A stretch of 64,000 nucleotides of DNA from Phascolarctobacterium sp. Lineage in GTDB: Bacteria > Bacillota > Negativicutes > Acidaminococcales > Acidaminococcaceae. The notes under the pieces are model-generated. The model ran no database searches. It was not told where the DNA came from and saw nothing but the letters and a program-made list of their open reading frames with translations. Below, piece by piece: positions 3,621-62,605 of this stretch. Made by a program: the position numbers and the translations under genes. Positions within the stretch are counted from its first letter, which is position 1. Each line of letters starts with the position of its first letter. The stretch lies in NCBI GenBank assembly GCA_051866495.1, contig JBJDXD010000026.1:177-64176 (forward strand), read 5' to 3'.

Positions 3621-3636
3621 AAATCTCCTCTTAAGC

Positions 3637-6670: not shown

Positions 6671-6702
6671 ACTAGCTTTGTATGTAATGATGAAAATATG
6701 GA

Positions 6703-16449: not shown

Positions 16450-16474
16450 CTCCTATCGAATTATACATTATCCT

Positions 16475-17429: not shown

Positions 17430-17468
17430 TCCATCACAACCTTACAAACTCTTTTAATCAGCTCAACA

Positions 17469-38360: not shown

Positions 38361-41300
38361 TTAAGCTTCTTTTTTCTTCTCTTCTTGCTCATTCTCCTGC
38401 TGAGTCTCGATGCGCAGGCCCTGATTATCCTTATGCAGCGCCACCTTATTGCTATTGGCAGAATGCAAGATTTCCGCTACAGGTCGTTCAGTGGCTTCTA
38501 GCAAATCATATCTGCCAAAAATGCCCACAGCATCACCATAATGCTCCTCGTAGCTTTGCACCGGCTTATAGTCATTGAGCTTGGCGCTCAAATCCTCGGC
38601 GGACCAGCGCTGGTTTGCACTGCGATAGCCAGTATCAATATGGAGCAAAAGGCCGTTGGAGCTTTGGTACTTGGCGTTCTCCACATAAAGGTTCATCCAG
38701 CCGCCATTGCCACCGGTGCTGCCCACAAAGCCAGCAGCTCCCTTAGTATCCTGCAGGCTTTGCCGCAGCTGACGCATGGTGTTCAAGGCACGCACCTCTT
38801 CGGGCTCGCCCTCCTTAATGGCTCGGAACTCATCTGCAGTAGCCCGCAGCTTGTAGCCGCTGGAGCCCTCGCCCAAATCATAATACAGAGCGTTGCTAGA
38901 GTCATGCTCCGGTGCCACGCCACCGCCGTAAACGCCGGTCACATAGCCCTGGTTGTAGAAATGAGCCTCGCCGCTCACATGGAGCTTGTCAATCTCCATC
39001 TTGCCGCCAATATTGACCTCCGCATTGGTCACATTCAAGGTGGTGAAGAGCACATCCCCAGCGATAGTCAGGTTCAAATCGCTTTGCATAGCTGCGCCGC
39101 TGCCATCTGCGCTCACACCGGTCACATCCACGATCAAGGTGCCCTTGTTATCGCTGCGGTCAATGGTAGGAATAGCAAAGTTATTGCCCTGAAGTAGCAA
39201 ATGCTCGTCCACCTTCAGACCTTCGCTAACCGTGATTTGGGAGCTGGCGTTTTCGGTGTAAAGCACTACATCCTTGCCATCCACCTTGCCCAAAACTACG
39301 TTGCCATTTTGGCTGCCTGCTGCCGCCATATCACCGGCCACCAGCTCCTTCACATTCACGTTGCCATAGATGGACACGGCGCTAATAGAGCCATTAAGAG
39401 CCTTGAGATGGTCGGCACTTTGCTGACTATCCACGCCCTTATAGCCATCTAGAATGATGCTGCCATTGTTGGAAACGACGGTGCCGTCATTAATTACATT
39501 GGCACCGGTGGAGCGAACTACCACATTGCCATCTGCAATTACAGCGGACACGTTGGTGCCAATGGTCAAGGTCTTGCCACTGGTCAGGTTAACATCCTTA
39601 TGGCTAACAATATTCATATTGTTATACAAATAGCCCTCATCAGCGATCAAATTCATGTCGCTGTCGCTCAGCAAAATGTTCAAACTGTCATAATAATAGG
39701 GAGTATCAGCATTAAAGTGAACCTGAATACTTTCGGTGCTTCCGCCGACAGTAATGGTTTTACCCGTTTGTCCACGATAATCATAAGTATTTTGATTATT
39801 ATACAGCTTGAAATTATCATAGTTGGTAGTATTGCCCATAGCGGAATGCAGCGTTACAGCGCCCTTATCCTCCTCGGCACTGCCCTGAGCTATGATATCG
39901 CCACGGTTGACTACATCACCAGTGCGATAGGCTTCTAGCAAGCCTGTGGTTCTAGTACCCTCGATAGTGGTAACGGGCTTCTCCGCATTCCTTTCGCTAG
40001 CATCCAAATAGAAAATTTCTGTTTTAAAGGCAGTAGCTGCATCAGGAATGACTACTTCCATGTCATTGGCCTTGACGATTTCTACCCACGCCCTATCGGT
40101 GTCCTTGTAATACTGCTTGGTAATCAAAATATTGTCGCCAGCCGCCTGAATCCTGCTAACATCAGCGGGAGCTAATTCAGCCAATTCTTTGCTATTACCT
40201 ATAGAATCTACGACCCTAATGGTGTTAGAGGCACCTGCTCCGGCTTCAAGGGTTACATTGCCATTTTTAGCAATCAAATCGCCGCCAACCAAGTTCACAA
40301 CTGTACCCTTTTCAGCCTTCAGGGTAATGTCTCCCTCCACAGAAAGCATTTCTGCCTTGTTGAACAAATCTCCCTTTGTAGCGTTGAGGGTAATATTCTT
40401 GCCTGCATAAATTACTTGGCCAAAGCTGCCCAAGCCAGTCTTGGCCTCCAAGGTTACATCACCCAAGGCAACCAGATAATCCTTGGAGTTATAAACATTG
40501 CCATTTACAGCCGAAATAGTTAGGTTATTATTGGCAATATTATAGCTAGCGGATGTGCTATCAATACTGGTATGCAGGTCAGCATCATAATATTTCATAT
40601 AAACGCCGTTATTGTCATAGGTATTGAAGTCATCAAAATTATGTACATTGCCATGCTCAGACTTCAAAAGTATGGAGCCAGTATTTTCCTTATCCACTGC
40701 ATTGGTATTGGTGGCAATGATATCACCATAGTTGGTTACGTTGAACCCAACGCCATTATTATCTTTTCCCTGCGCCAACAAGGTTACATTACCGCCGTAG
40801 GTAATAATATCGCCCTTGCCTGCAGTGAAATCATTTTGCACACCGTTGATAATATTACCCTGCATTGCTTGTAATGTTACATTGCCTGCGTAGGATTCCA
40901 AGGTTGCGCTATTCACCACATCACCACTGGTCGCCTTAAGGGTTATGTTCTTGCCAGCATAAATATTATAGGCAAAGTTGGATAAGCCCTCGGCTGCGAT
41001 TAAGGTAATATTTTCGCCGGACTCCAAATTTTTGTTGTTATACAGGGTGCCATTTTTTGCAAGGATTTCCACATTGCCGGTTGCAATGGCAATGCCACTG
41101 GTACTGCTTGAAGGTGTATAAATCCTAGATGCCTCAGAGCTACCGGTGCTTACCAAGGTATTAAAATCATCGTAGTTGGTCACATCACCATGGGCGGAGC
41201 TCATAGTAATGGTGCCGTCAATAGCCATGGCATCACCAGCATTGAAGACGGAGCCGTTTTTCAAAACAGTGCGATTCACACCATCAATTACAGCAGTATA

Positions 41301-50300: not shown

Positions 50301-53300
50301 GCCAACCATATCCGTATCAATGGTGCGTTTTTCCAAGGCATTAACATTAATATCCTTAGCAAAGGCACTGCTATTCAACACCTCGGCGGCAGTGCCCGTA
50401 TTGATATTCACAGCACCCTTGCCCACAGCAATACTTGAGATAGAGCTACCGGATATTGAAACATTTTGATAGCGATTATAGGTATTATTGTTGGCCTCAA
50501 CAGTAAATTCAGCAAACTCCTTATCCTCACTACCGATTACAGCATTATCCACCTTGGCGCCAACCTGTGCTTCAGTATTGATATTGCCCACAGCAGTTCC
50601 CGCTGCAGCACCAATAGAAATAGCCAAAGCATTGCCGGATAATTCCGTAGCCAACTGGGTATGATTATTTGCCAAAACCTTTACATTGCCAACTTGGTTA
50701 GCAGCAGCTGCTAGCTTCACCTTGGAAAGCTCCGCATTGGTATGGCTGCTGTCTTCTAAATCAGTAACACCAATGCTAAAGGAGCCGCTAAAAATACCGC
50801 CGGATAGAGCAATGGCATTATTATAGGCTGCCACATTGGCCAAGCGATTCGCATTAACATTAAGGTTGTTCACGGTGCCATGCACTTGGGAAACAAGAGC
50901 AGTGGTATTGCTGGTAAAACGATCCACAGAAACGGAGCCCGTAGCGCTTGCACCTGCCATGGCGCTGGCGCCTGCGGCTACACCGGACTCGCTAATATAT
51001 ACGCTGGTATACCCCAAGGCATCCACATTCACATTATGTGCATTGAGCACAGTGCTTTTATCATTCTTGCCCAAGATCTGGGTCGTTGTGGTTCTATCCA
51101 CAGTATTGCGGTCACCGGCACCAGCAACGCCAACGCCTGCACCCTCGCCCGCACCCACACCAACGCTTAAAACAGCAATATGGGAGCTAATGTCTGCACG
51201 ATCATAAGCATCCACGGTTACATCCGCAGTGCTCAATTGCTCAGCAGTATCATTGATGCTAGTATTATTTACTTCCGCAGTGGTCTTGCCACTGATCTTG
51301 TTGATGACCACCGTGGCATCCACGGCCACGCCAGCCTCGCCACCGACGGCCACACCACCGGTAACGGATACATCACGCAAGAAATGCTCTGCCTCTGCAT
51401 TAACAACCAAGCCTTTTTTAGCTTCTGCAGAGGTAGCTGCTGTTTCTTTTAATTCATATTTAGGAGGGTCACTTTCCTTTTCACCAAAGGAATGCTCGCT
51501 CAGCTTAACGCCATCGCCCTCGCCCAAGGCCACGATGGAGCTATCCTTGATGATGGACTGGGTATCGCCCTCAATAGTATTGGTCACTATGGTAGCACCC
51601 AAAGCAACGCCTGCTTCAGAGGAAACGCCCACGCTCAGGCCACCGCCATAATTGCGCAGCCGCTCATAGCTATCACTCAAAGCAGCCACAGTGCCGGTAG
51701 CATAAATATCATCATTTGCAAAGGTTACAGTGGTATCGTTATCAATTTTATTGGTGGCCACATTGCCAACCAGGCCCACGCTGGCGGAACCGCCGCCCAC
51801 GGCAGCACTCAAGCCAATGGCCACATCTAAAATCTCGTTAGTAGAGTTAGCCTTGGCTATAACATCCTTAGCTTTAATAACGCTATTTTTAATTTCCGTA
51901 GTGGTATCAGCATCAGAGCGCACCTTAGAAACAGCGCCGTTGCCGGAGATTTTAATGCCGTCACCAACGCTCACAGCCAACGCATCCGCACTGCTGTTAA
52001 TGTCGCTGGTGCTGGTAGCCTCCACTGTAATTGTAGAATTATTGTTATCAGTGGTGCTGCCTTCTATATTAACTTTGTCCATGCCTGCCACGGTATTCAT
52101 ATAATCCGTGGTCACAGCAACGCTGCCCTCGGCAGAAACGCCAAATTTTCCGTCACCGGCGCGCACGGCACCGCCCAAAGCCAGCCCTAAGAAATCAGCT
52201 TCGTTGGTGGCTTTGGTTTGGATGGTGGCACCGCTCAAGGTGGTGATGTTAGCATTATTCAGCTGGGCCTTAACGGTCTGCTTATCCTTAGCGTCGGCAC
52301 CATTGCCAATATTATTATAAACAACCGCGCCGCCGATGGAGGCCATGGCATTGTCCCCTGCAGTCACAGCCACGGAGCCAGCAATGCCCTTTTCTACAGA
52401 GGTATCCTTGGCAGTTAAAGAAATAGTCTTGGCATTGGTAATGGTATTATTGATTCTTCCGGTTTCCTTGCCCTCTGAGTTCTTGACTATGTATTGGTCC
52501 ACAATGGCTTCCGTATTATTCTTGCCACTGTTTTCTGCATAAGCTCCCTCTAACGCCCCATTGCCCAAAGCAACACTAGCGCCCACGGCCACAGCCCAGG
52601 TCTTAGCCTTGTTTTCAGCGGTCTTCGCCTTATTTTCAGCTGCAAGAGCAAGATTGGTCTCAGCTCCGTTAATTCCATTCAGAGTTATGCCCTGTGCATA
52701 AGCGCCAGTGGTATTGTTCATATTATTTTCAGCCCAGGTTAGACCAGCAGCAACTCCCTTTTGACTTGTCTCCACGCTCACCTGACCGGCCACGCTCACA
52801 AGGCTGGATTCGGTTGTACCCTTGATAGCCAGATTATCAGTAGAAATAGAACTGTTTTCCACGCTGGCCTTAGTTGTGTTGGTAATGCTTTGGAAGGCAC
52901 CGGAGCCAGCCAAAGCAAGGCTCATGCCCTTACCCTTGGCATTGGCAGCTGCACCCGCAGCCACGCTCACCATGCGGGTATCGCTGGCTGCTTCCACCCG
53001 CAGGGCAGCCTCAGTCAGCTTGTTATCATTATCATAGGTGCTTCCAGCAGTGCCAATGGTGGCATTTTTCACAGCAGCAGTAAAATTATTAGTGATGGTA
53101 TTCACGCTGGCTGCCGCTGCAGCAGCACCGCTAACGCCGGTTTCTTGCCCGGCAACCACGCCCAGGCCCAGGGCCACGCCCACAATGGTATTGCCCTGAT
53201 TGGAGAGAGTAATTTTAGAGCTGTTATAGGTAGCCTTATCTGCATTGTCGTTAACAATTACACTTAAATCAGCACCCTTGGTGTTAGTGGGGTCAGCACT

Positions 53301-56300
53301 TGCTCCATTGGCTTGATTCAAAGCATCATTGCCGGTGAAGTCATAGAAATTCTTGTTTGTAGTTTTCAGCTCATTGGGGTTATTAATTTCCTTTCCCGAC
53401 CCATCCTTATAGGTAATGTCATAGATGTCTACAATATTGCCATGTGTATCAGTATAAACAACATTAACAACATCAACTTCCTGACCATTTGCATTATAAT
53501 ATCTAACGTCCTCCACATCCACGATTTTACCAGCTGCATCGTAGTAGAGGCCATCATCTTTAAGTACTATTTCCTCGTCATTGATATCGTAATACTTGCC
53601 ATCTTCCTTCTTGGTAATGGATGGAGCAAGGCGTGTGTCACCTTGGTAATAGCCCCCTTTTTTATAAACTCTATTACCAGCCTCAACTATTTGTCCCGAA
53701 GAATTTGTATATGTTACATCTACTATATTTCCACTGCTGTCACGATATTGGCCATCTTCTACATTAAAGAATACTTCGATATCACCCACATAATACTTTC
53801 CATCAGCAGTTTCAGTAACGGACGGTATAAGCATAGCGCCATCCTTATACCAGCCTGTATCTATTATTTCTACTGACGGAGTCAACACTTCACCATCCTT
53901 GTAGAAATTACCATCTGTACCCACGGTAATATCCTTAGAAAGCGTTTGCGGTTGCTCTCCTTCGCCTGTGACAAAATTTCCATTAGCATCAACAGTAACA
54001 GCAAAGCTACTGGTTTGGTTCAGCTCGGTTAAGTATTTATTGTCGGTAGTGTTAGCAGTTAGCTTGCCATCCTTGGCTTCGTTGGAGACTTTATTGGCAT
54101 AAATTGCGCCGCCGTCAATGGTAGCATCCACCGTGTTATCCACGCTGTTTTTAGCCACAGCCACATTCAGTGCTGCATAGGATTTGCCCGTGGCCACGCC
54201 CACGGAAATGGCCGTGCCCACCTGGGTCAGCTTGCTAGCAGCAATATTATGCACCTCGGCAGCACGCAAAACATTCCCACCATTGTTCGAGCCAATCTGG
54301 TTGCCCTTCATTGCAGCCTTAATATCATTTTTAACATCGTTCACGGTCACGGCTGCGCCCGCGCTGGCTGTAGCCTGGGTCACCTGCGTGGTCACGCCGC
54401 CTGCAACCTGCACATCCTGGTCATAGGCCACATTATTGACCACAGTGTTGCCGCCAACAATTGTATTATCGAGCATATCCCCATGCACAGTACTATCAAT
54501 ATAGTTGGCAGAGCCGCTGGCTGCCAAATTAATATCTATGCCGCCCTGACGCTTGCCCACTTCCAAGCCCAAGGACAGGCCTGTTGCCACCTGAGCACCG
54601 CTATTATGGGCGTAGTTTAACACATCCACTCCCATAACAGTAGCGGACTTATCGATTACAGTATTTTGCAGTGTCGCAGTGGTGGTTTTCTTTAAATCAT
54701 TGACGCCAACTGCACCTGCCAAGGTGCCCCGGAATTTGCTATTATCACCATTACCAAGCTTGTTCAAGGCCATGGCACCGCTATAGGCACCAATGTAGGA
54801 AGCATCCTCTGCTTCAACCCTTACAGAGCCTGTTACATCAGTATCAACCACACCTTCTCCTTTTTCGGGAGGAGTCAGGGTTATCTTAACATTATCTAAA
54901 GTGGCCTTGGTTTCGTCGACCACATAGTTCCAGGAAACGCTGCCCACAGCATTAAGCTTAATGGTGGCCTCCTGTCCACCGGCGTTGCCACCGTTGACTT
55001 GGGCGTTTTGCACTCCCCCCGCTCCGGCACCACCGCCTGCAGCAGCATTGACGCCGCCAGCCTGCTGATTAGCATTGTCGCTACTGTTTTTTACACCGGC
55101 CACAGTTAAGTTATTGATAATGCCATCGGTAAGAGCATTCACCTTCACGCTATTGGCACTGATGCTACCCTTAATAGCTGCATCAGCTTCCGCAGAGGTA
55201 CCGTCAGCCTTCAGCTCCTGATTAGTCAGCTCGGCAATGCTGTGAATGTCATAGGAAATAACACCCACACTCGCACCCACGGAGCTGGTCTCGGAGCTGT
55301 TCCAATCGCCCACCAAATTTATAATATTGGTATCATTAGTCGAAGAAATGTTCACCGCACCAGTGGAGGTTACTTCATCCTTATCTTCTGTAGTGCCATC
55401 ATCCTTTTCCTTGGTTACCTTTTCCACCTTTTTGCGCGCAGTAAAGTTAACATCGTCATCCACAAGGGTTTCGGCGTGAGATTCGCCGCCCATGTAGGAC
55501 ACCATGCCCGTCAAGCCCAGCTTGCTGGTCTGGGAGCCAGCAATGCCGATGCCGATATTCAAAACATCATTTTTGGTAGCAATATCTATAGAACCAGCGT
55601 CAATGGTCACGCCGTTCATAACCTGCACTCTGCTATTATTGTAGGCATTTTGCACGCCCACAGTGCCGCCAAGGCCATTTTTAGCATTAGCTAAAGGAGT
55701 TGGGTCAATAATAAAATAGGGGAAGGCACTCAATTTGCCCACTGCCATAACATTGGTTTCCACCACGTTGGCCGCAATATTGGCTGCATTTTGCCTACCA
55801 GCGGTTAGGAGAGTATTCGCACCTATCTTGACATTGGCCGTGTTATGCAAATTCTGCACGCCCACCGTGCCCGCAAGCACGCCGGTGACATCCTTTTGCT
55901 TGTCCGCATCATTATTTTTACCACCGGCAGACACATACATATTCACATAATTGGCGGGATCGAAAAAGGCCAGCAGTGCCTCCCGCAGCTCGTTTGTACC
56001 AGTCAAGGAGCCAAGCAAGTCAATGGCAGCACTAGCCTTCTTGCCAAATTTTTTGCTATCCTTGTAGGATGTGGTTTTTTCCTTCTCACGAATCCACAGG
56101 ATATCTACAATGATACTCTCCAGCTTATTGATTTTATCTTTTACCCCAGCCTTGCTCCAATCGGTATAATGCTTTTTGAATTTATCCCAAGCATCCAGCA
56201 CATCTTCACACATGGAGTTCACGCGATTATAACGCTGCTCCACACTGGAGTTAATGGAAACATCCCCATCAGCAATAAGCTTTGCATTGGAGCTTTCTTG

Positions 56301-58874
56301 ACTATTAGAGGTCTTTTGATTAATATTGACCTCTGCTGTGTTATGCATATTTTCCACAGCCACAGCAGCAGCCACAGTAACATAGGTGGTATCATTACTG
56401 TTAATGAGTAAATTGGTGGTTGCAAAAGCTGTATCACCAATTTCCACACCAGCGCTAATATTTAAATTCCCATCGGTTGCTTGCGTAGAGGACGCTTGCG
56501 TATAGGACGCTTGCGTATAGGACGTTGGATACAAATTAATCGTAGCATCATTAGTCACGTCGGCAACGGATACAGAAGCGCCCAAATCAAAGTATTGGTT
56601 CCAACTAGGAACACCAGCTCCGCCTGCGGCTGCACCGCCTCCACCGCCGCCACCACCTGCGCCGGGATCATCCGGCATTTGGTTGCCTAGCCAGATGGCC
56701 TTCAGGAGGGGCTTCAAAGAATCCGCCTTCTCAGCCACAGCATCAGTATTGATAACCCAGCTGAGGCCTGTAAACTCGCCCACATATTCATCACAGGTGG
56801 AAATGCTAAAGCTATCTAAATTATGTTGGGCCTCCATATTTACGGAGCCGCCCCGCACTGCCACATAATCATTAATGGTAGCAGTACCCTTGGTATTCAC
56901 AAGATTAACAGCCGTGCTCACTGCAGTATCATCGGTTTCCTTGCCAGCAGTGATATCGGTGCCCGTCTCCACATTGCACTCCATATCGTTGGTGCTTTCT
57001 GCCTTAACATCCAGCTTACCCTTAGCCTTAAGCAGCGGATTCTCCTCTGTACCCTTATTAGCAAGGTTGGCAGTACCCAAATTAACGGTGGCCTCCGTAT
57101 CCTGATAGCTCAGGCCGACGCCCACCATGAACATGGACGCATATTTATCACCATGTTCGCCCTGGTCGTAATATTTAGGAGTCGTAACGCCCATGCTGCC
57201 ACTATTATTGTTTTTGGCCACGGCAGCTATTTCCATATTCTGTTCTGCATCAAGCTTGCCATTGACATTGACCTTGGCATTGCTTGTGCTATTTTGATAA
57301 ATAAAGCCACCAGTGAAGTATTTAGAAAGGTCTGCCGTACCCTCTTTAATATGGGGCTGGATGGCCACCTTCATCTTATTTTTGGCCGTACTAGTAGCGT
57401 CCACATGGATATTGCCACCAACAGTAAAAGTTTTCTGGTCTTTTGTATATGTAAATGGATTACCCTGACTATCCCTAGGCATCTTGGCTGTAATCTGGGC
57501 CGGAGCGCCAATATTAACAGTGGCCTTGGCATCGGTAATAGCAAAGGGCATGTACAGCTGGTTGAAGATATTATTGGTAATCATGCCGGGCTGGCCCCAA
57601 TGAGGATTGGACTCAATAAAGCCTAAAAGGTAATTGCTCAGCTTGCTTTTTAGCTCAAGAACTCCTGTTTCCTGGCCAGCATCATTGAGAATGTCAAAAA
57701 CATTGGCATAATTGCCACCGCTATATTCGGAGCTGGCCTTAGCAGAAATATTTACATCCGCACCGGAAACAGCGCCATTGATGGTTGCTTCCGCCTTGGT
57801 AAAGGCCACCATGTCCCAGAACTGAGTAATTTTAGTTCTTTGCAAACGCTTGGCTTCGGCAGTAATGTCCACATTGCCCACAGCATCAACAGTGGCGCCC
57901 TCGCCCACTTCTACCTTGGCCTCTACAGTGTTGTCGATAGAGGTTACGCCTAAAAACTTCGTATTAGTATTCTTGGTATCGGAAAAGGCGGTCAGCTTGA
58001 TGCTGCCGTCACCCTTGAGCTCAGCATTCTCACTGTCATGGGGGTCGCTGATAACGATATTGCCCTTGCCATCATGGGAAGCGGTGAGACGACCTGTAGC
58101 TACTAAATCTTTATAATTATCGGATGACACATTAACTAAACTCTTGAACTTTACGCCTGTTTTCAAAGAGGGCGCAGGAGTATTGGCATCTGCGCTAGTT
58201 TGCTTCACCACATTGATATAGGCAGCACGCAAATCGATACCGGTAGCAGCATTAATTTGGCCGTGGATGTCAATTTTAGCAGACTTATCCAAGCTACCCC
58301 AATTATTATCACTAATGGCTTGGGCCGCAGCTTCCGCACTACTAAAGGTTTTGCCAGAGGTCATCACCGTCAAGGACCCAGCATTAATCACGCCGCTGGA
58401 GCCCACTACCATACCCCTAGGAGAGAGGAAATACAGGTTGCCACCAATTTCACTATTGCGAATAGCATTCACAGTGCCGCTGATGCTGATTTGCTCTTGG
58501 ACGGTATTCACCAAGGTATTGAGAACAGTATCAGAATTATATTGCTTGAAATAGAGATTTGCAATGTGATTAGCACCAACCTCAAATGTTTTAAACCTAT
58601 TCAGGCCCACAGTACCATTGGCCTGCTCGGCATAAATATCCGCAACAGTATCAGTAGTGCTTTGTAGATAGGTTTTGCTCAAGTCACTAGGAATGCCATC
58701 AACACGCTCAATGCCCGCAGCATAGGCGTCCCGTCCCAGCCAAGGCGTCAGGGCAAAGCCCACCCCCACCGCCAAAACCGAGCGCAGCACCTTCATGCGC
58801 AGGGTGGCACTAGCTTCTCGCTGGTAGTCCAAATGCTTTTGCTTATATCTTAATGCTTTTCTTTTGTTACTCAT
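38361..58874 (-). CDS. Giant (6837 aa) LktA-like filamentous adhesin/exoprotein, TpsA of a two-partner secretion system
   Basis: Extended signal peptide (DAYA|A), TPS domain (GLNRFKTFEV...IGGNLYFLSPRGMVVGSSGVINAGSL), long Gly/Ala/Val/Asn/Thr-rich beta-helix runs; downstream of tpsB in the same operon. Confidence 0.92.
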   Translation of the reverse strand: MSNKRKALRYKQKHLDYQREASATLRMKVLRSVLAVGVGFALTPWLGRDAYAAGIERVDGIPSDLSKTYLQSTTDTVADIYAEQANGTVGLNRFKTFEVGANHIANLYFKQYNSDTVLNTLVNTVQEQISISGTVNAIRNSEIGGNLYFLSPRGMVVGSSGVINAGSLTVMTSGKTFSSAEAAAQAISDNNWGSLDKSAKIDIHGQINAATGIDLRAAYINVVKQTSADANTPAPSLKTGVKFKSLVNVSSDNYKDLVATGRLTASHDGKGNIVISDPHDSENAELKGDGSIKLTAFSDTKNTNTKFLGVTSIDNTVEAKVEVGEGATVDAVGNVDITAEAKRLQRTKITQFWDMVAFTKAEATINGAVSGADVNISAKASSEYSGGNYANVFDILNDAGQETGVLELKSKLSNYLLGFIESNPHWGQPGMITNNIFNQLYMPFAITDAKATVNIGAPAQITAKMPRDSQGNPFTYTKDQKTFTVGGNIHVDATSTAKNKMKVAIQPHIKEGTADLSKYFTGGFIYQNSTSNAKVNVNGKLDAEQNMEIAAVAKNNNSGSMGVTTPKYYDQGEHGDKYASMFMVGVGLSYQDTEATVNLGTANLANKGTEENPLLKAKGKLDVKAESTNDMECNVETGTDITAGKETDDTAVSTAVNLVNTKGTATINDYVAVRGGSVNMEAQHNLDSFSISTCDEYVGEFTGLSWVINTDAVAEKADSLKPLLKAIWLGNQMPDDPGAGGGGGGGGAAAGGAGVPSWNQYFDLGASVSVADVTNDATINLYPTSYTQASYTQASSTQATDGNLNISAGVEIGDTAFATTNLLINSNDTTYVTVAAAVAVENMHNTAEVNINQKTSNSQESSNAKLIADGDVSINSSVEQRYNRVNSMCEDVLDAWDKFKKHYTDWSKAGVKDKINKLESIIVDILWIREKEKTTSYKDSKKFGKKASAAIDLLGSLTGTNELREALLAFFDPANYVNMYVSAGGKNNDADKQKDVTGVLAGTVGVQNLHNTANVKIGANTLLTAGRQNAANIAANVVETNVMAVGKLSAFPYFIIDPTPLANAKNGLGGTVGVQNAYNNSRVQVMNGVTIDAGSIDIATKNDVLNIGIGIAGSQTSKLGLTGMVSYMGGESHAETLVDDDVNFTARKKVEKVTKEKDDGTTEDKDEVTSTGAVNISSTNDTNIINLVGDWNSSETSSVGASVGVISYDIHSIAELTNQELKADGTSAEADAAIKGSISANSVKVNALTDGIINNLTVAGVKNSSDNANQQAGGVNAAAGGGAGAGGVQNAQVNGGNAGGQEATIKLNAVGSVSWNYVVDETKATLDNVKITLTPPEKGEGVVDTDVTGSVRVEAEDASYIGAYSGAMALNKLGNGDNSKFRGTLAGAVGVNDLKKTTTATLQNTVIDKSATVMGVDVLNYAHNSGAQVATGLSLGLEVGKRQGGIDINLAASGSANYIDSTVHGDMLDNTIVGGNTVVNNVAYDQDVQVAGGVTTQVTQATASAGAAVTVNDVKNDIKAAMKGNQIGSNNGGNVLRAAEVHNIAASKLTQVGTAISVGVATGKSYAALNVAVAKNSVDNTVDATIDGGAIYANKVSNEAKDGKLTANTTDNKYLTELNQTSSFAVTVDANGNFVTGEGEQPQTLSKDITVGTDGNFYKDGEVLTPSVEIIDTGWYKDGAMLIPSVTETADGKYYVGDIEVFFNVEDGQYRDSSGNIVDVTYTNSSGQIVEAGNRVYKKGGYYQGDTRLAPSITKKEDGKYYDINDEEIVLKDDGLYYDAAGKIVDVEDVRYYNANGQEVDVVNVVYTDTHGNIVDIYDITYKDGSGKEINNPNELKTTNKNFYDFTGNDALNQANGASADPTNTKGADLSVIVNDNADKATYNSSKITLSNQGNTIVGVALGLGVVAGQETGVSGAAAAAASVNTITNNFTAAVKNATIGTAGSTYDNDNKLTEAALRVEAASDTRMVSVAAGAAANAKGKGMSLALAGSGAFQSITNTTKASVENSSISTDNLAIKGTTESSLVSVAGQVSVETSQKGVAAGLTWAENNMNNTTGAYAQGITLNGINGAETNLALAAENKAKTAENKAKTWAVAVGASVALGNGALEGAYAENSGKNNTEAIVDQYIVKNSEGKETGRINNTITNAKTISLTAKDTSVEKGIAGSVAVTAGDNAMASIGGAVVYNNIGNGADAKDKQTVKAQLNNANITTLSGATIQTKATNEADFLGLALGGAVRAGDGKFGVSAEGSVAVTTDYMNTVAGMDKVNIEGSTTDNNNSTITVEATSTSDINSSADALAVSVGDGIKISGNGAVSKVRSDADTTTEIKNSVIKAKDVIAKANSTNEILDVAIGLSAAVGGGSASVGLVGNVATNKIDNDTTVTFANDDIYATGTVAALSDSYERLRNYGGGLSVGVSSEAGVALGATIVTNTIEGDTQSIIKDSSIVALGEGDGVKLSEHSFGEKESDPPKYELKETAATSAEAKKGLVVNAEAEHFLRDVSVTGGVAVGGEAGVAVDATVVINKISGKTTAEVNNTSINDTAEQLSTADVTVDAYDRADISSHIAVLSVGVGAGEGAGVGVAGAGDRNTVDRTTTTQILGKNDKSTVLNAHNVNVDALGYTSVYISESGVAAGASAMAGASATGSVSVDRFTSNTTALVSQVHGTVNNLNVNANRLANVAAYNNAIALSGGIFSGSFSIGVTDLEDSSHTNAELSKVKLAAAANQVGNVKVLANNHTQLATELSGNALAISIGAAAGTAVGNINTEAQVGAKVDNAVIGSEDKEFAEFTVEANNNTYNRYQNVSISGSSISSIAVGKGAVNINTGTAAEVLNSSAFAKDINVNALEKRTIDTDMVGVGVGALNIGVNVMYTNIGTNLKSKYSYDDGSKSYDTSEFQAMVNGALARMNSQVNAARAKTGDTSITRGSSSINTGRADQGGIRNTISNSVLKASDDLKVRAKATTNTDIDIKQASVAIVNIGVPANRTDVEDKLTVDIDNAYLQGKSLEVTSITDGEIKSYTGQGGFTGASYVDTTAYLKHHGTNKISIDGSTLNVVKAASTAINPFYIHAVNQTKIDNSALGVNVGLAVAGRLVLEGEDSTEVKIELGKDSKVAQENIFSATKLVDNKEVYTDIGVMAENAAVVKNEIPADVSGGLVAAGGSLVTSKATGKATLDVSSRNAFAAQKVDLESLTGGTKTGDTNPQYTTEAINRAVGVSAVTISVDKARTYNNMQATTTVDAIKILDQVGENKITLADLKIGATNATSSNAYIHSVAVGMGAASGSNFAQSHAESKAITTVNAGTGGISATSFDIFASNSDDILAKANGSNAGLMDISPYAARVENTVDTTTTVNLTGKLEAASTFKAQALRKDIANFSADALSITAAGGGDARVDTTITANTNVNVTGATINSGDDTILEAENTVEMNREEGYAQMVKGQGYAVFGVNTSGIKNTINSTAHVNLLNSNIYSGGNLKAIAHTEQQLQVNGYVYTASAMGGVESRVTNNINNDEEVKVQNSKLKTTKVYKDITLSAADDLKLFTYAYSEFSTGAWGGADAIVKNNLTRNNKINLLSGSDLYSLQDINLYAGKNADGSVATLDLDAEASDFVGSVIPITLKPSVTNAIKQNNQITVDASSASTSVRHTNLYASTGREMARTSSGRYVGIYGSSRDSNFVTTDKGETINGKDANNYVNINGKVIAGIANKIDITIGSDGDIVILDKKMRDSVYGAKDASQITITVDANASTGLTKNSLTFGSENYANTLYERYNAVLDLMTEYEKDGTSAYLGYRAEGERILNEMVSLGLADKISVEDETRGTIYVIVPKSSMLVDYVEISDLVGSGGNIVVDTDVLKSSAGSGTIKAQGSPEINIINNTNLLTKVNSITVGDPGGKLIFNGTNVNGANKAEFNKNISAINKKNAGANFAVVNAADGQSGRVNIQGNYGGGSINYSFKDEEGTPRAGSYRPMANILVQGNIYSKEGSVTITSAHDSIEIQGKTAKDAVSVSGSTVNITANNGSITQGYTDGIVSIGGDVRQQYDEAYRAAIGEGVGEHTISQIVTDIEDGSKATGSYIAGGSVFINASDININGVIQSGFGDYYANISDAAVQARINQINNAYNGKAISDSVVTTGEQYKIIDGGAYWDAQTGCYKYKLNVYYNPSTQKILVQNVDASGGKVYLTGRISSTGNGKIICLDGVSNINVNNGTNYTLQLGDLITHEVQGLVSITDTAQRKLTEITSSGAIEKAIDENGKIAQTGTRPEEDILANGYKPLTGLHYTWTTGKEVTTYERYEEDFKDGGWGLWSNGTTTEQLQNWINEKQLTFEPKETGLEKNGDRTAGETIRVENNDTSYVKVTKTPLNNGTIVKESERKYASGLWGINKHHVITWTKKSGSLEAYDASIKADNPINIKFIGTAAARANINVTSLKDIELTGTVGNTALYEAITNDVVTGRNEKGTVNITSQNGSLIQSGGALYGANINLSAAKDMTDITVIAGDTVNLSAVNSMSNQDAIAQNSIDVTVKGAYLAKGNVVLGNIGSVVTHDNVNSVPVNASGVKTTGVTGLVEITTTGPEGNISQKAGSLIVSDRIDLTSNNGSIYGQKSEDANNNVSYTALQLYAGQQPLGLDTMDASVNAAAKGDIKLAQVDGKMRIGRIYSTEGDVTLTVAHGSVEDALPYVSSDRGDADDMLARWKRLGIIASDGDDENSAMLAAKAHQNATSQQVTQNTYEAWDAYALLYAIQDSIVNPEGTSLPTTSDKDPNVIGHNITINVADSVGINSGVEKRIDLTTLLDKDENKNYTHLDDLKALSRLDASTKVDWEDGVGEDTHKYAVYTETIPIGIQQTTKTLVTEQGTTVVNGKLTVQSAANPSSGTSSLNGDIFLQGREQKLDANGTAAITQNKDLYINNILTNMGAVTLTSLGGIYNAANAAVPTIIGQNLVMTAAGGSIGTKDAHITINLFGADKAVDGLSAIAAGGIYVDQKGASDLIVRNASSGGDIFLGSDKSILMGVVNGADADSYIRAENNGDITLEARGGSIGEAAYEADSQTISRESNNGVRILNAAAKSASATDPKVTNVTLLAQDNVYVTGIASETGKTAVGQGPAGWLNLSIASNNVDSNNQPVQLQNVGIYVDGQLNLYNAIDTSATASVYVTDNLALNNDITVKSLDTFVGSAKDLTINVAFGVEGTNKLTLKAGNDLLMNQGSLTGNNIELAAGKDISLQSGTIAATTRAVLEADGNILLKGGSMTAPDVDMVALGYVDQTYDNSKATVNGYELSVSDTLQVMTGGKYTADGQDYGIDLGSKFNQLQKVEMNSENGNVVLGNSGSEDLEVSVQTIQGVDTVNGSIKIHNYDNGTANDVKISNSLKATEKITIINDNGDIINSGIALSGSDVALNAFAGDVYNFAGITATNGGVDIYAAKNVYNIGDAVADCITATDTVSIVAGSATHGADEGLVWNTARIHSDTDVVIQATDRVVNTVDIPDGMSLGQSTQSGAISANGTVKITTIHKSDSTSASFGIYNSASISAGENAIINSRDDLINTGNIQANGYIDLDATEEVINGAENAVTGQIQAGGNIYLTSWKGNVTNYDNIQSTAGQVVLENGFVYTLSDNDDTGLVNNILNTGSILAQKDVLIRTYNGNIENKNIITSYAGSVLMEALQSEQYLPDQVNPIIVGQLKNTDTDNATSNADITANKGITLNAATSIDNKGDFVVTGTGDIIVKAGDLVTNSGNYRINGAGNIAVTATGVTTTVSSEQVTTGGDIINYGNYYTKSGSITIESNEDVLNTGVMETESGNISIISVDGVVFNKDGADLLSGKGNVSLQAQSNDGYYYYFDAEGNLNKVPAGITPAPARDGTYTAVIDGVNRTVLKNGSVFNAGDAMAIDGTITMSSAHGDVTNYDDFNTLVSTGSSEASRIYTPSSSTSGIAIATGNVEILAKNGTLYNNKNLESGENITLIAAEGLSNFAYNIYAGKNITLKATSGDVVNSATLESYAGNVTLQAMQGNIINGVQNDFTAGKGDIITYGGNVTLLAQGKDNNGVGFNVTNYGDIIATNTNAVDKENTGSILLKSEHGNVHNFDDFNTYDNNGVYMKYYDADLHTSIDSTSASYNIANNNLTISAVNGNVYNSKDYLVALGDVTLEAKTGLGSFGQVIYAGKNITLNATKGDLFNKAEMLSVEGDITLKAEKGTVVNLVGGDLIAKNGNVTLEAGAGASNTIRVVDSIGNSKELAELAPADVSRIQAAGDNILITKQYYKDTDRAWVEIVKANDMEVVIPDAATAFKTEIFYLDASERNAEKPVTTIEGTRTTGLLEAYRTGDVVNRGDIIAQGSAEEDKGAVTLHSAMGNTTNYDNFKLYNNQNTYDYRGQTGKTITVGGSTESIQVHFNADTPYYYDSLNILLSDSDMNLIADEGYLYNNMNIVSHKDVNLTSGKTLTIGTNVSAVIADGNVVVRSTGANVINDGTVVSNNGSIILDGYKGVDSQQSADHLKALNGSISAVSIYGNVNVKELVAGDMAAAGSQNGNVVLGKVDGKDVVLYTENASSQITVSEGLKVDEHLLLQGNNFAIPTIDRSDNKGTLIVDVTGVSADGSGAAMQSDLNLTIAGDVLFTTLNVTNAEVNIGGKMEIDKLHVSGEAHFYNQGYVTGVYGGGVAPEHDSSNALYYDLGEGSSGYKLRATADEFRAIKEGEPEEVRALNTMRQLRQSLQDTKGAAGFVGSTGGNGGWMNLYVENAKYQSSNGLLLHIDTGYRSANQRWSAEDLSAKLNDYKPVQSYEEHYGDAVGIFGRYDLLEATERPVAEILHSANSNKVALHKDNQGLRIETQQENEQEEKKKEA
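52599..52640 (-). repeat. 21-bp tandem duplication (AENKAKT x2) in tpsA
   Basis: GGTCTTAGCCTTGTTTTCAGC / GGTCTTCGCCTTATTTTCAGC, 2 mismatches. Confidence 0.85.
56479..56523 (-). repeat. 15-bp tandem repeat x3 (SYTQA) in tpsA
   Basis: GCTTGCGTA(G/T)AGGAC x3, encoding the ...SYTQASYTQASSTQA... stretch. Confidence 0.9.
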
Positions 58875-59970
58875 GCTGGCTTCCCTCCTCCCTTATTACG
58901 GTGCGTTTAACATATCCCAAGGCCTCGTTCAAGCAGCTTTGCCGCTGCACCGGACGCAGCTGTACATAAGCCTTGGCCGGCAGGGCCTCGCCCCGCTGCC
59001 AACGCAGCTTAAAATGGGATATGCGGGAATATATATATGTATCAGCATCCATGGACGCTGCAAAAATCGTCTTTTTTAAGCCATCTATCCGTGCATCAGC
59101 CACGTTATATTGCTGCAAAAGCTCCATCAAAGCGGCAAACTTTTCCGTTTGCACCAGCCTTTGCTGCACCGCCGGATAAATGGCATCCTGAGGAATAAGC
59201 TCCACGCCAAGGGTATCACCCATTTGGTCGTCAAGCACATCCACATCAAGCATATATTTAAAAATGCCCAAGGCATCTATTTTTTGCAAAAGCTCCCAGC
59301 CCGCTTGGGGAATTTGGGGAGCATTAATTTTGGTCAAGGCCTGCTCCAAATTATGGAGGCCCTGCTTCAAGAACAAAACTAAGCGCAGGGGCGCAGCCGC
59401 TCTGGATTCCATAAAGCCAAAATGCCAGGGCTCGCACCACTCCTTGAGCTTCTCTAAAAGCTCCTGTAATTCTCCTGCTTGACGCAGGCGACCTCTGTAG
59501 CCCAGCACCGCCAAAAGCAGCTCGTCCACAAAATCACCGGATAAATTGATAAAGGTGGCCACATTTTTGCCCTCAGCCTGCTCATGGCTAGAGGCAGCGT
59601 CATCAATATCCGCCTCCAAATATAAATTACAATGGTTGAGCAGCATGGGTTTAAGCTTAGCCAACTCCTTGGCATAGTAATGAAAAAAAGCTCCCTCCTG
59701 GCTCAAGGGGCCATCCTGCAGGGGATTGCCCTCTGCAAAGGCTTCAGCAAAATATTGGGCAGACACATCCACTTGAGGCTTGCCCAGCAGCGGCACCTCC
59801 ACATAAAAATCAACTCTTTGTCCACCTAAAGCATAAAGAGGTGCCTGATTCATGAGCTTAGCCTCAGTAGTAGCCTCAAGACCCCACAGCTCCTGCCCGC
59901 CAGGGGCAGCAAGAAGCTGACGTCGCCAAAAAGCAAAGGCTTCCAGCTGCTGCACTAGACTGATACTCAT
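58867..59970 (-). CDS. Uncharacterised 367-aa cytoplasmic protein with a predicted ABBA/PT-barrel (aromatic prenyltransferase-like) pattern
   Basis: AAGGAGG RBS before ATG 59970; 8-nt overlap with the tpsA start; five predicted beta-hairpins separated by helices, ending SHFKL...KAYV. The fold call is inference. Confidence 0.5.
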   Translation of the reverse strand: MSISLVQQLEAFAFWRRQLLAAPGGQELWGLEATTEAKLMNQAPLYALGGQRVDFYVEVPLLGKPQVDVSAQYFAEAFAEGNPLQDGPLSQEGAFFHYYAKELAKLKPMLLNHCNLYLEADIDDAASSHEQAEGKNVATFINLSGDFVDELLLAVLGYRGRLRQAGELQELLEKLKEWCEPWHFGFMESRAAAPLRLVLFLKQGLHNLEQALTKINAPQIPQAGWELLQKIDALGIFKYMLDVDVLDDQMGDTLGVELIPQDAIYPAVQQRLVQTEKFAALMELLQQYNVADARIDGLKKTIFAASMDADTYIYSRISHFKLRWQRGEALPAKAYVQLRPVQRQSCLNEALGYVKRTVIREEGSQHE

Positions 59971-60016
59971 AAATAGCACCTCCTTCCGTTATGTTTATTA
60001 AGTTTTAGAAAATAGC

Positions 60017-60451
60017 TTAAGCCCAAATGAGCTTCATAATATTTTTATATTCTGCCAACAAATGCTTTACAATCACATCCAGTACGGTGTAAACCATGTC
60101 CCCATCCAGCTCTTCGGGCCGCTCCAGGATATAGGAATCAAGAATCAGGGCCCCATCCTCGGCAAAATAATATTTAAAAATCTTGTATTGGGCGTTAATC
60201 TTATTGATGGCCTTTACCAGCTCCACTTCGTTGCTTTCCTTTAAGGCAGCATTGGCAACGCGCACGCGAATCATGGTATAAATGCTGCTATCGGTAATGA
60301 CGATGGTGGGCAGCTGTTGCCCCTCCACATCAATAGAGGAACGAAAAACAACGGTATTCAGCGCATCATCGGGCACCTCCTGCACTTGAAAGCAGGTAAT
60401 TTTTCTTTCCTCTAGGTATTCTTGAAAAAGCTGTGCTTTTTTGTTCATCAT
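60017..60451 (-). CDS. YbjN-family / CesT-like chaperone-fold protein
   Basis: 144 aa, acidic; alpha-beta3-alpha-beta2-alpha pattern with LVKAINKINAQYKIFKYYFAEDGALIL. Confidence 0.7.
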   Translation of the reverse strand: MMNKKAQLFQEYLEERKITCFQVQEVPDDALNTVVFRSSIDVEGQQLPTIVITDSSIYTMIRVRVANAALKESNEVELVKAINKINAQYKIFKYYFAEDGALILDSYILERPEELDGDMVYTVLDVIVKHLLAEYKNIMKLIWA

Positions 60452-60491
60452 GGGAATCGTCCTTTCTCATGCTTATGCTAAATAAATTTTA

Positions 60492-62177
60492 TTAAAATTG
60501 ACCGCTCACAATGAAATGCAGCCTGGTCTTGCTAACCTCATCGGCTACAAAGGAGCGCTGCAGGGGCACGCCCAGAGTCAAGGATGCAGAGCAGTATTGG
60601 TTAATGGTGCTGCGAATGCCCAAGCCCAAGCTTGCCAAAATGCTGTGCTGGTCGTCACTTTGACCATTGCCATAGACATGACCATAATCAAAGAAGGTGA
60701 AGGCGTTGGTGTTTCTATTAATCACAGGTATTGAATATTCAGCACTGAAGGTGAAGCCGCTGTCGCCACCCAGGAAGTTTTCCTTGTAGCCACGGACGCT
60801 ATACATGCCGCCCATGTAGAATTGACGGGAGCTAACCATGCCCTCGCTGCCGCTCCATTGAGCGTCAGCACGCAAATTAATCATTTGCCCACCAGCATAA
60901 AGCTTTTGGTACAGGCCATTGAATTTATAGAAGCCAAAGTTTTGGCTATCCTCCAGCATGCTGCTAGGAGTGCGCTCGCTGTAGCCACGCACATAGCTGT
61001 GCTTTTGGTAAAGCACATGGCTGGCACCATAATTGGTCATGGCAAAGCCAAGCGTAAAGTCCTGCACGGAATCATCCACGATGTTGAAGCGATTTCCCAA
61101 AACCATAAAGTCCGTCTTGGAATTTTGGCGATTGTAATCAAGGCTCAGCTCAGTACGAGTGGTTTCGTTCACTACAAGGGGCTGGGTAAAGCCAATGGCA
61201 TAGGAATTAGCATGGCCCTTGATCATATCCTTGTAATCGCCCTTGGTAACCTTAACGGCGTTGGTGCTGTAGAGCAAATTCATCTTGGTGCCACTGCGGC
61301 CAAGGCTGCGGGTATACATGGCATTGGCTGCACGAGTACCCTCGCTGAACACAGTGCCCACGCTAAAGGGGTCGCAAGTGCCGGACAGGCTTTTGGTATT
61401 AAAGAAAAGGCCTGTGCGGTATTCACCACTGGTATCGCTGCCAGCGTTATCTTCAAAAATGGTCCAGGTGTCACGCTTGGGCTCATAGGCAGTGATTTCG
61501 TAATCGGTGGTGCCGGGCTTTTGTCCGGCCTTCATCACAATGCGCAGCTGGGTGGAATTGGTTGCATTAAAGAGCAGCAAATCCTTATTCACCTGCTTAA
61601 TATTAGCAATTTCATTTTCTTTCAAATGTAGCCTTTTGGTAATGAAGGAAGTTTTGGTATAGTTATTGCCGCTAACAGTGGTATTGCCCGTGCGGCCCTC
61701 CACCAAAAGCAGCTTTACCTTGCCATCGGTGATGGTTTGGGGAGGCAAAAAGGCGCGACAGGTTACATAACCCTTAGATGCGTACAGGACATTGATTTTC
61801 TCCACAATGGCATAAATATCATTGAGCTGCACCATCTTGCCCTCATAGGGCTGGGTGATTGCAGCAAGCTCTGCCTCAGTTAATACGGCAGAAGAATCCA
61901 TAACAATTTTCTTCAGCTCGAAGGTAATAGCCTCGCCCTGCTGGGAAGCTGCCTTATCAGCGCCCTCCACTTTATTTTTGCTAGCAGCTCTATCCTCTGC
62001 AATTTGGCGTTTAACTCGTTCACGCTCCATATAATTGCGCATGCGGTTCATTTGGATACCAGCATCACCCTTGACTTGGTCAGGAACGGCATCAATAGGA
62101 GCTGCCAAGGCAGCACTTGCGGAGGTCATACAAGCTAGCACGGCTAGAGCTGCAAGGTATTTTTTTTGCATATTCAT
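60492..62177 (-). CDS. ShlB/FhaC/HecB-family TpsB outer-membrane transporter
   Basis: Signal peptide (ALA|A), POTRA segments (YASKGYVTCRAFLPPQTI), VRGYKE lid-lock motif, C-terminal LHFIVSGQF. Confidence 0.93.
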   Translation of the reverse strand: MNMQKKYLAALAVLACMTSASAALAAPIDAVPDQVKGDAGIQMNRMRNYMERERVKRQIAEDRAASKNKVEGADKAASQQGEAITFELKKIVMDSSAVLTEAELAAITQPYEGKMVQLNDIYAIVEKINVLYASKGYVTCRAFLPPQTITDGKVKLLLVEGRTGNTTVSGNNYTKTSFITKRLHLKENEIANIKQVNKDLLLFNATNSTQLRIVMKAGQKPGTTDYEITAYEPKRDTWTIFEDNAGSDTSGEYRTGLFFNTKSLSGTCDPFSVGTVFSEGTRAANAMYTRSLGRSGTKMNLLYSTNAVKVTKGDYKDMIKGHANSYAIGFTQPLVVNETTRTELSLDYNRQNSKTDFMVLGNRFNIVDDSVQDFTLGFAMTNYGASHVLYQKHSYVRGYSERTPSSMLEDSQNFGFYKFNGLYQKLYAGGQMINLRADAQWSGSEGMVSSRQFYMGGMYSVRGYKENFLGGDSGFTFSAEYSIPVINRNTNAFTFFDYGHVYGNGQSDDQHSILASLGLGIRSTINQYCSASLTLGVPLQRSFVADEVSKTRLHFIVSGQF

Positions 62178-62377
62178 AAGGCACCTCTGATGTTAAAATT
62201 TCTTTGTATTATAACTCTTCACATAACTATATAATAGTCCACATATAATTATATAACCTTCTTCGTCAATTTACAATCAGTTTTCTTCAAAAATATCCAT
62301 TGAATATTTACTTTCTACAATTAAACTATGGCTTACTCCATCATATTCAATACTGGTATATTTTACCAAAGCAATTT

Positions 62378-62605
62378 TCATAAAAGTATCACACAAAACA
62401 TAAAGCCAGCGATTTCTCGCTGGCTTTATGCCTTGTGGGGTGCACAATATTCTATTAAACACACCTGACAGAAGAAGGGTGTGCCAATAGCCCTTTGCCA
62501 GCCTGGGCTGGCAAGCTTGGCTAGCAAGCCGGGTTCGGATTAAAAGCTTTGCTAACCACGCTGTTAAGTTTAACACCTTAAGTATCATAAAAGTGTCACA
62601 CAAAA
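62378..62605. repeat. 21-bp direct repeat pair upstream of tpsB
   Basis: TCATAAAAGTATCACACAAAA (62378-62398) and TCATAAAAGTGTCACACAAAA (62585-62605). Confidence 0.75.

Follow-up and report, generated by a model that had tools for sequence, protein, structure and literature searches.

A predicted ABBA prenyltransferase-fold protein shared by two-partner secretion operons of Negativicutes and peptide natural-product gene clusters

Two-partner secretion (TPS) is usually described as a matter of two proteins, an outer-membrane transporter (TpsB) and an exoprotein (TpsA), and the well-documented modifications by a third partner are only glycosylation by HMW1C and acylation by CdiC. We analyzed a 64,000-nucleotide stretch of DNA (hereafter the window) from a Phascolarctobacterium-like Negativicute of the pig gut, in which two additional genes lie between tpsB and a giant tpsA. 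What does the second of these, encoding a 367-residue protein of an unnamed family, do in a secretion operon? The predicted structure of this protein is an ABBA prenyltransferase (PT) barrel, and its relatives occur in TPS loci and, at greater distance, in gene clusters for peptides that are made by ribosomes and then modified after translation (RiPPs). Our favored explanation, which is tentative, is that a peptide-tailoring enzyme was recruited to modify TpsA. The locus has the following main features:

60492-62177, minus strand: tpsB, Omp85-family outer-membrane transporter of 561 aa with a signal peptide, POTRA domains and a ShlB-type barrel (Pfam)
60017-60451, minus strand: gene for a 144-aa cytoplasmic protein resembling YbjN and type III secretion chaperones (AlphaFold2 and Foldseek)
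58867-59970, minus strand: gene for a 367-aa cytoplasmic protein of predicted ABBA (PT-barrel) fold, unnamed family, candidate TpsA-modifying transferase (AlphaFold2 and Foldseek)
58867-58874, minus strand: stop/start overlap ATGAGTAA that couples the 367-aa gene to tpsA (sequence)
38361-58874, minus strand: tpsA, 6837-aa LktA-family filamentous exoprotein (list of open reading frames, ORFs)

The ORF list and the sequence confirmed the tight operon described in the original prediction: the four genes are co-directional on the minus strand, with gaps of 40 nt between tpsB and the 144-aa gene and 46 nt between the 144-aa and 367-aa genes. The predicted overlap of the 367-aa stop with the tpsA start is also real, and an identical 8-nt overlap is present in the related locus L002. 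The 367-aa gene begins with ATG at 59970, 9 nt past a GGAGG; since, in addition, all homologues begin with MSIS, 367 aa is the correct length. A longer ORF starting with GTG at 59979 was rejected on the basis of the homologues. Neither the 367-aa nor the 144-aa protein has a signal peptide, which places both in the cytoplasm.

An AlphaFold2 model of the 367-aa protein, built with 28 homologues (pLDDT 72, pTM 0.76), contains ten DSSP strands arranged as five hairpins with helix pairs in between (53-60/68-74, 115-120/137-142, 179-186/195-201, 237-246/249-260 and 311-325/333-342). The five beta-hairpins that had been read from the sequence beforehand all coincide with these strands. In a Foldseek search of the PDB, the 50 best matches of the model were without exception ABBA prenyltransferases, 25 of them at E <= 1e-3, as anticipated by the original proposal of a PT-barrel. 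The best E-value was obtained for CymD (7e-6), while TM-scores ranged from 0.25 to 0.53, with the highest for DMATS1 and MpnD (0.53). Foldseek probabilities were 1.00 for the best 24 matches and 0.66-1.00 overall. Other matches included AnaPT, NotF, CdpNPT, NphB/Orf2, EpzP, AmbP1, AmbP3 and FamD1, as well as the peptide prenyltransferases PagF, PirF and KgpF and the inactive PatF. As far as a predicted structure allows, these results support an ABBA prenyltransferase barrel. At the sequence level, the protein gave no match in Pfam, NCBIfam or the PDB (phmmer), and neither did the family profile when searched against PDB sequences (hmmsearch). A Pfam scan of 62 family members returned 28 weak matches, each in a single one of the 62 sequences and none to a prenyltransferase family. 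The family lies outside the recognized sequence models (Trp_DMAT, PTase_Orf2 and cyanobactin LynF/TruF/PatF).

When 1.84 billion representative proteins were searched exhaustively with HMMER, only 79 clusters (50% identity) fell into this family at E <= 1e-3. Nearly all full-length members have 306-375 aa, with one fusion of 647 aa. In an alignment of 62 sequences the mean column identity is 25%, and pairwise comparison with the window protein gives identities down to about 19%. The near-invariant positions comprise eleven charged or aromatic residues (E58, D68, D121, R190, R196, D244, D292, R294, K321, K333 and Y335) together with L61, G63 and G185, and they are the same in TPS- and RiPP-linked members despite about 20% overall identity. 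The K-x-Y motif pointed out in the original prediction is genuine and near-invariant, with K333 in 61 and Y335 in 58 of the 62 sequences; it is a candidate counterpart of the pyrophosphate-binding motif of ABBA enzymes. Along the strands, conserved polar residues occupy alternating positions (Y56/E58, D68/S70/Q72, Y117/E119/D121, F140/N142, R196, D242/D244, G255/E257, H319/K321/R323 and K333/Y335/Q337), with hydrophobic residues filling the positions between them. Judged from this i, i+2 periodicity, the conserved residues are expected to face the barrel interior. By the same register, the conserved basic and tyrosine residues R190, R196, K321, K333 and Y335, along with H319 and R323, would fall at inward-facing positions.

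Among relatives with readable neighbours, all those from 99% to about 27% identity adjoin tpsB or tpsA; the lone exception, L020, is a fragment at a contig end. Together with one relative at 20% identity, these loci show four gene orders and two TPS-domain types. For instance, five loci with proteins of 66-73% identity (L001-L005) have the same order of tpsB, 144-aa gene, PT-like gene and tpsA. The PT-like gene lies immediately downstream of tpsB in L032 and L040, and tpsB stops 3 nt ahead of it in the case of P0146 (30% identity). For P0123 (38%) and P0153 (27%), which account for the loci L031 and L028/L029, the gene comes directly past the 3' end of a giant tpsA, whose product shares its C-terminal domain with the window TpsA. 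The gene of P0181 (20%; L036) overlaps the start of tpsB, which is followed by a classical NPxG-type tpsA. The claim that homologues are linked to TPS loci thus holds down to about 27% identity, plus one case at 20%.

Neighbourhoods were further sampled with a degenerate DNA pattern for S-H-[FILV]-K-L-x-W-x6-P-x-K-x-Y, in genomes (one per species) and in JGI metagenomes, and hits were checked by tblastn. As this pattern favors the crown clade, the resulting TPS fractions are biased upward: a TpsA N-terminus lies directly downstream in 10 of 13 true genome hits, usually with tpsB and the 144-aa gene upstream, and all eight true metagenome hits are TPS-linked, with a TpsA N-terminus or tpsB adjoining. 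The true genome hits belong to Phascolarctobacterium, Megasphaera, Dialister, Acidaminococcaceae and Schwartzia, while three more metagenome-assembled genomes (MAGs) are labelled Lachnospiraceae, Paludibacteraceae and 'bacterium'. Genome hits in Brachyspira (L006), Calditrichaceae (L014), Oceanobacillus (L016/L018) and an alphaproteobacterium (L017) were discarded as chance matches, as were the metagenome hits L038, L042, L044 and L045; tblastn found no PT-like homologue in any of them.

The remaining relatives, at about 20-26% identity, occur in clusters of the RiPP kind that feature Nif11-like precursors and radical SAM/SPASM maturases, so the family probably works on peptides. Their Nif11-like precursors match TIGR03798 with E about 1e-6, just under the cutoff. 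The most elaborate example is L015, an Acidaminococcaceae MAG (JAZLLX010000142.1, positions 1-8000; 23% identity), where four Nif11-like precursors, a GNAT protein and two paralogous 452-aa radical SAM/SPASM RiPP maturases flank the PT-like gene. The precursors are opposite in strand to the enzymes, and their cores past the GG site (SSCAGDIEEKCK, GCDGPCNERCTADW, CGNDGGCPGRCFPNWG and ECWPCEDCPDLVQFGCNTDW) are Cys-rich, three of them ending in Trp. This RiPP cluster is apparently undescribed so far. In L035, three genes stand consecutively, for a 61-aa Nif11-like precursor with the core WEIHGCSG, for a radical SAM/SPASM enzyme and for the PT-like protein, and the PT-like genes of L030 and L033 also have radical SAM/SPASM neighbours. 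The PT-like gene of L049 is joined by genes for a 43-aa peptide, a radical SAM enzyme and GNAT. The L024 cluster (2328-6332) contains, besides the PT-like gene, a precursor-like peptide of 95 aa that has a GG site and a core rich in Tyr (YGNEGRPFRIEYYNYMQYRIIYLD), a pair of MntA-like nucleotidyltransferases and an RtcB-family ligase; the combination is unusual, with RtcB in a RiPP-like setting.

In P0155 (L027, 963-2906), the PT-like domain is fused to a peptide arginase of the FlmR/OhkR type (NF052474, E 1.4e-48) that is intact, with the DxHxD, EEHxEAF and LDxDLDYF motifs present; a flavodoxin-like gene and a radical SAM gene follow downstream. Peptide arginases are RiPP maturases (PMC12703449). 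L022 (820-1000) is degraded: the gene of a Nif11-like precursor, truncated to 29 codons before its stop, adjoins what is left of a PT-like gene, the final ~25 codons, and next to this remnant lies an opposite-strand 452-aa ORF. Most of the predicted RiPP cores past the GG site, and the candidate peptide of L049, contain Trp, with the Tyr-rich core of L024 beside them. A relevant precedent is MppC, an ABBA enzyme that was shown experimentally to geranylate Trp on a precursor with a Nif11 leader (PMC12715784). A RiPP-tailoring context, that is, a precursor together with other maturases, was found for distant family members only. A search of the window for Nif11-like leaders found none, and no precursor peptide lies near the 367-aa gene; TpsA is thus not obviously recognized via such a leader. 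In a neighbor-joining tree, which is star-like, of low resolution and used only for a broad statement on depth, the RiPP-linked lineages are deep and the TPS-linked ones mostly fall into the crown clade, with the TPS-linked P0181 nested among RiPP-linked branches.

Several signals delimit the operon in the window:

62437-62392, minus strand: strong 20-bp terminator ending the upstream unit, ahead of the promoter candidate
62276-62248, minus strand: sigma-70-like promoter candidate upstream of tpsB, TTGTAA-17-TATAAT (consensus match alone)
38321-38301, minus strand: intrinsic terminator behind tpsA with a 9-bp stem (7 GC) and a T-run

Given the spacing, the promoter-like site and the terminator, tpsB, the 144-aa gene, the 367-aa gene and tpsA are one transcription unit. 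Within the gene junctions, the minus strand has just one terminator-like match, a weak hairpin of 6 pairs where the 144-aa gene stops (60034-60019). Metatranscriptome contigs from pig gut bridge the tpsB/144-aa and 144-aa/367-aa junctions, which is weak evidence for co-transcription given possible DNA carry-over in the libraries. A 108-aa ORF at 62277-62603 (minus strand) was considered as a fifth gene and rejected, as it has no family match and contains the terminator hairpin at 62437-62392. A second terminator hairpin lies at its upstream edge (62635-62606) and the promoter-like site adjoins its downstream end; the region is probably an intergenic regulatory region between two-component genes and tpsB. 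These two-component genes (62649-63946, minus strand) encode a response regulator, with a receiver domain and BtsR/LytR as best NCBIfam matches, and a histidine kinase of LytS type, present with its C-terminal part. The unrelated RiPP locus L024 likewise has genes for a LytTR regulator and for a GHKL kinase beside the PT-like cluster.

The two partners proper are of type Vb: TpsB is an Omp85-family protein with POTRA and ShlB regions, and TpsA has a signal peptide and a TPS domain. TpsB matches the Pfam models POTRA_2 (E 3.5e-20), ShlB (E 1.3e-24), Omp85 (E 2.8e-12) and POTRA, and is 65-81% identical across related loci. In TpsA, an extended signal peptide (residues 1-52, read from the sequence) precedes the secretion domain, and the body is repetitive and rich in Ala, Gly, Asn and Thr. 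No Pfam model matched TpsA, and the NPxG-type model TIGR01901 matched at E 9e-6 only, below cutoff. The recognizable parts of TpsA and a short paralogue are as follows:

58200-58640, minus strand: TPS secretion domain of TpsA, FxxPxG/LktA type, residues 79-225 (NF012204, E 1.4e-39)
38409-39377, minus strand: conserved C-terminal domain of TpsA, residues ~6500-6822 (blastp)
33998-36961, minus strand: 987-aa short LktA-type exoprotein, paralogue of TpsA (NF012204, E 1e-36)

The C-terminal domain, which has the motif GGWMNLY...SSNG.LLH...ANQR...AEDL and no family match in Pfam or NCBIfam, recurs in L031 and L028/L029, where it ends the TpsA genes ahead of the PT-like gene (blastp E 2e-48 and 2e-43). 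A polymorphic-toxin (CdiA-CT) reading of this end was rejected, as the region is conserved in distant loci and in the 987-aa paralogue. By blastp, the paralogue matches TpsA over its residues 1-298 (E 1e-45) and, with residues 715-961, TpsA 6511-6822 (E 2e-30); it keeps the N-terminal TPS and C-terminal domains and has no long repetitive body. The paralogue may be a recombination cassette, or else TpsB and the modifier may handle it as a second cargo. An Rpn/PDDEXK_2 transposase-like gene (37192-38034, minus strand) stands between the paralogue and tpsA. Unusual repeat regions were noted in TpsA at residues ~790-830 and ~1700-1950 (about 56400-56500 and 53000-53800), including about ten glycines in a row (PGAGGGGGGGGAAAGGAG), short YTQAS repeats in tandem and a Tyr/Asp/Gly-rich block of 'DGKYY / DG.YYD' repeats unlike the remaining filament.

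For the 144-aa protein, the match to Pfam YbjN (PF10722) is sub-threshold (E 5e-4; 20.6 bits against a cutoff of 22). An AlphaFold2 model of moderate confidence (pLDDT 66) matched DR_1245, SycH, VecA, SycN/YscB, SpcU, ExsC, CesT, E. coli YbjN, Spa15 and SicP in Foldseek, with E about 1e-3 and TM about 0.5. This agrees with the earlier description of the protein as YbjN/CesT-like, and the model places it in the YbjN / type III class I chaperone fold, a membership at fold level only. The protein is 76-99% identical in relatives, and a homologue search gave only 84-99% identical sequences without names. Its gene is absent from four TPS loci that carry the PT-like gene (L032, L036, L037 and L040) and is therefore an optional accessory. 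Of the chaperone-plus-modifier pairing that had been put forward, the presence of both folds in this locus stands, and a constant partnership does not. The accessory is also less new than had been implied. In Fusobacterium necrophorum, LktC carries a 'sensory transduction regulator' domain (PMC11350119), and this wording is the Pfam description of YbjN, so the 144-aa protein is probably the LktC counterpart.

Taken together, we tentatively favor, at slightly less than even odds, the explanation that the 367-aa protein is an ABBA-fold transferase of the peptide-tailoring kind which was recruited to act on TpsA in the cytoplasm and probably prenylates it. By analogy with HMW1C and CdiC, it would be an active transferase that modifies TpsA before Sec export. 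In such a scheme, the enzyme would bind newly made, unfolded TpsA in the cytoplasm and transfer a group, most plausibly an isoprenyl group from dimethylallyl, geranyl or farnesyl diphosphate (DMAPP, GPP or FPP), to one or a few side chains of aromatic or nucleophilic character. The 144-aa protein may, in this lineage, keep TpsA or the enzyme-substrate complex export-competent, and Sec export would follow, after which TpsB would export the 6837-residue LktA-type filament. What we infer in this scheme is that the protein is catalytic, that its donor is a prenyl diphosphate, that TpsA is the acceptor and that transfer precedes export. Prenylation is the most economical guess for the chemistry because the structural neighbours are all prenyltransferases, the RiPP cores contain Trp or Tyr, and MppC sets a precedent. 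The conserved Trp of GGWMNLY in the TpsA C-terminal domain is, as speculation, a candidate acceptor. The more far-reaching version, in which ABBA RiPP maturases were captured by Negativicute TPS operons and now prenylate a giant (~7000-residue) secreted filament in the cytoplasm, appears rather doubtful.

A number of points weigh against the favored explanation. Pfam, NCBIfam and PDB searches revealed no sequence-level kinship with characterized prenyltransferase families, the confidence of the model is moderate (pLDDT 72), and its TM-scores reach only about 0.5. The conserved Lys, Arg and Tyr residues are no more than candidates for diphosphate binding, and the presumed barrel interior is unusually acidic for an ABBA enzyme, which could mean a different donor or chemistry. 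No acceptor site within TpsA was identified, and the window contains no isoprenoid gene. Inactive ABBA proteins exist, such as PatF, which is itself among the Foldseek matches. Finally, the lktBAC locus of F. necrophorum, whose exoprotein belongs to the same TpsA family, has three genes and no such enzyme (PMC11350119), so the enzyme is not needed for LktA-type secretion in general.

The acidic interior also bears on an alternative that we regard as unlikely, in which the protein is a real enzyme acting on TpsA and RiPP precursors by non-prenyl chemistry, using another (di)phosphate-activated donor or a barrel reaction other than transfer. Seven conserved strand positions are acidic (E58, D68, E119, D121, D242/D244 and E257), more than in typical ABBA enzymes, and both the missing similarity to known prenyltransferases and the company of some relatives (two nucleotidyltransferases and RtcB in L024, GNAT acyltransferases in L015 and L049) would suit such chemistry. 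However, Mg-dependent ABBA enzymes such as NphB and PagF also pair acidic residues with diphosphate, the significant structural neighbours are all prenyltransferases, and Trp- or Tyr-containing cores suit aromatic prenylation.

A non-catalytic role is similarly improbable in our estimation. As an ABBA protein of the PatF kind, the barrel protein would then be a cytoplasmic adaptor or chaperone which binds TpsA, or the leaders of RiPPs, and passes them, along with the YbjN-like protein, to the machinery of export or maturation. Inactive ABBA members are known, with PatF among the matches, the gene adjoins that of a chaperone-fold protein, the catalytic residues are candidates only, and the arginase fusion could mean a substrate-recruiting domain. 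On the other hand, eleven near-invariant alternating residues, kept at about 20% identity and across unrelated substrates, are typical of a ligand or catalytic site and not of a surface for peptide binding, and several lineages dispense with the YbjN-like partner. More improbable still would be an enzyme that makes or modifies a small molecule, such as a prenylated aromatic metabolite or a lipid, and is placed in the TPS operon for co-regulation. Although most characterized ABBA enzymes act on small aromatics and dominate the Foldseek list, the adjacency to tpsA or tpsB is kept in four gene orders and with two TPS-domain types, the 367-aa gene is translationally coupled to tpsA, and the non-TPS contexts all hold ribosomal precursors or peptide maturases and no small-molecule pathways.

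The other genes of the window are housekeeping and signalling genes. A 683-aa ORF (6703-8754, minus strand) combines the large and small subunits of [FeFe]-hydrogenase in a fusion with rubrerythrin and with a rubredoxin-like domain. A polyamine-type set (12747-19016, minus strand) comprises an agmatine deiminase-like PAD_porph protein, a saccharopine-dehydrogenase-like enzyme of the carboxynorspermidine dehydrogenase type and an Orn/Lys/Arg decarboxylase. An AAA_15/AAA_21 ATPase of the OLD/AbiEii-like defence type (28145-29458, plus strand) is on the strand opposite to most window genes.

If the more far-reaching version, a captured RiPP maturase that prenylates TpsA, is true, TpsA would rank as the first TPS exoprotein with a prenyl group and as the first full-size secreted protein handled by a RiPP-type tailoring enzyme. 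Its lipid could fix the filament in the outer membrane or a target membrane, or give it an orientation there. A prenyltransferase-fold partner would bring a third chemistry to TPS modification. The hosts (Phascolarctobacterium, Megasphaera and Dialister) are diderm Firmicutes found in abundance in the guts of humans and animals, and their surface biology is barely studied. An unnamed ABBA-fold family that is invisible to sequence-based annotation fills a gap in natural-product research, and the locus would be a concrete example of an enzyme recruited from peptide natural-product pathways into protein secretion. For experiments on the chemistry, the short RiPP systems are an easy way in before turning to the giant adhesin.

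Compared with what is known, as covered by Pfam (2025), NCBIfam (June 2026), the PDB and full-text literature searches, the new elements are an ABBA-fold family without a name, the link of this family to a peptide arginase and to RiPP clusters of the radical SAM/SPASM type, and its recruitment into Negativicute TPS operons. The TPS core, the YbjN-like accessory and the concept of a lipidating third partner are of known kinds. The novelty claimed for a modifier in TPS thus stands in part: the full-text search found no literature linking an aromatic prenyltransferase to two-partner secretion, while a lipidating third partner is already known in CdiC (PMC8510554). The peptide ABBA prenyltransferases PagF, PirF, KgpF and MppC resemble the 367-aa protein in the predicted PT-barrel, and are soluble and cytoplasmic. 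MppC is alike also in that distant family members, too, adjoin Nif11-like precursors with Trp or Tyr cores (PMC12715784). However, sequence similarity of the family to these four enzymes is not detectable, and its partners are radical SAM/SPASM enzymes and a peptide arginase instead of the cyanobactin proteases or lanthionine synthetases of PagF-type enzymes and MppC. The crown clade is tied to giant secreted TpsA proteins, whereas PagF-type enzymes and MppC are tied to short peptides, and the hosts are anaerobic gut Negativicutes rather than the cyanobacteria of the cyanobactin F enzymes.

Among secretion systems, F. necrophorum lktBAC shares the NF012204 LktA-type FxxPxG TPS domain, tpsB (lktB) and a small accessory gene. 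In contrast to the operon studied here, three genes are described, in another order and without a PT-barrel gene; LktC is matched by description only. The type III class I chaperones and YbjN proteins (CesT, SycH, SicP and DR_1245) share their fold with the 144-aa protein and are likewise small, acidic, cytoplasmic and encoded beside a presumed client. Unlike in their case, no type III system is present here, and as client one would expect the modifying enzyme or a substrate of the Sec/TPS route. In the Haemophilus HMW1 system, the third partner HMW1C is cytoplasmic and modifies TpsA ahead of export (PMC3983070), but it is a GT41 N-glycosyltransferase that adds sugars rather than lipids and is related to the 367-aa protein in neither sequence nor fold. 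CdiC is a proteobacterial lysine acyltransferase of the HlyC/TAAT family that depends on acyl-ACP (acyl carrier protein), with unrelated fold and chemistry; as an accessory of class IV contact-dependent inhibition (CDI) TPS loci that lipidates a TpsA-type effector in the cytoplasm, it is nevertheless the closest functional analogue of the proposed modifier (PMC8510554).

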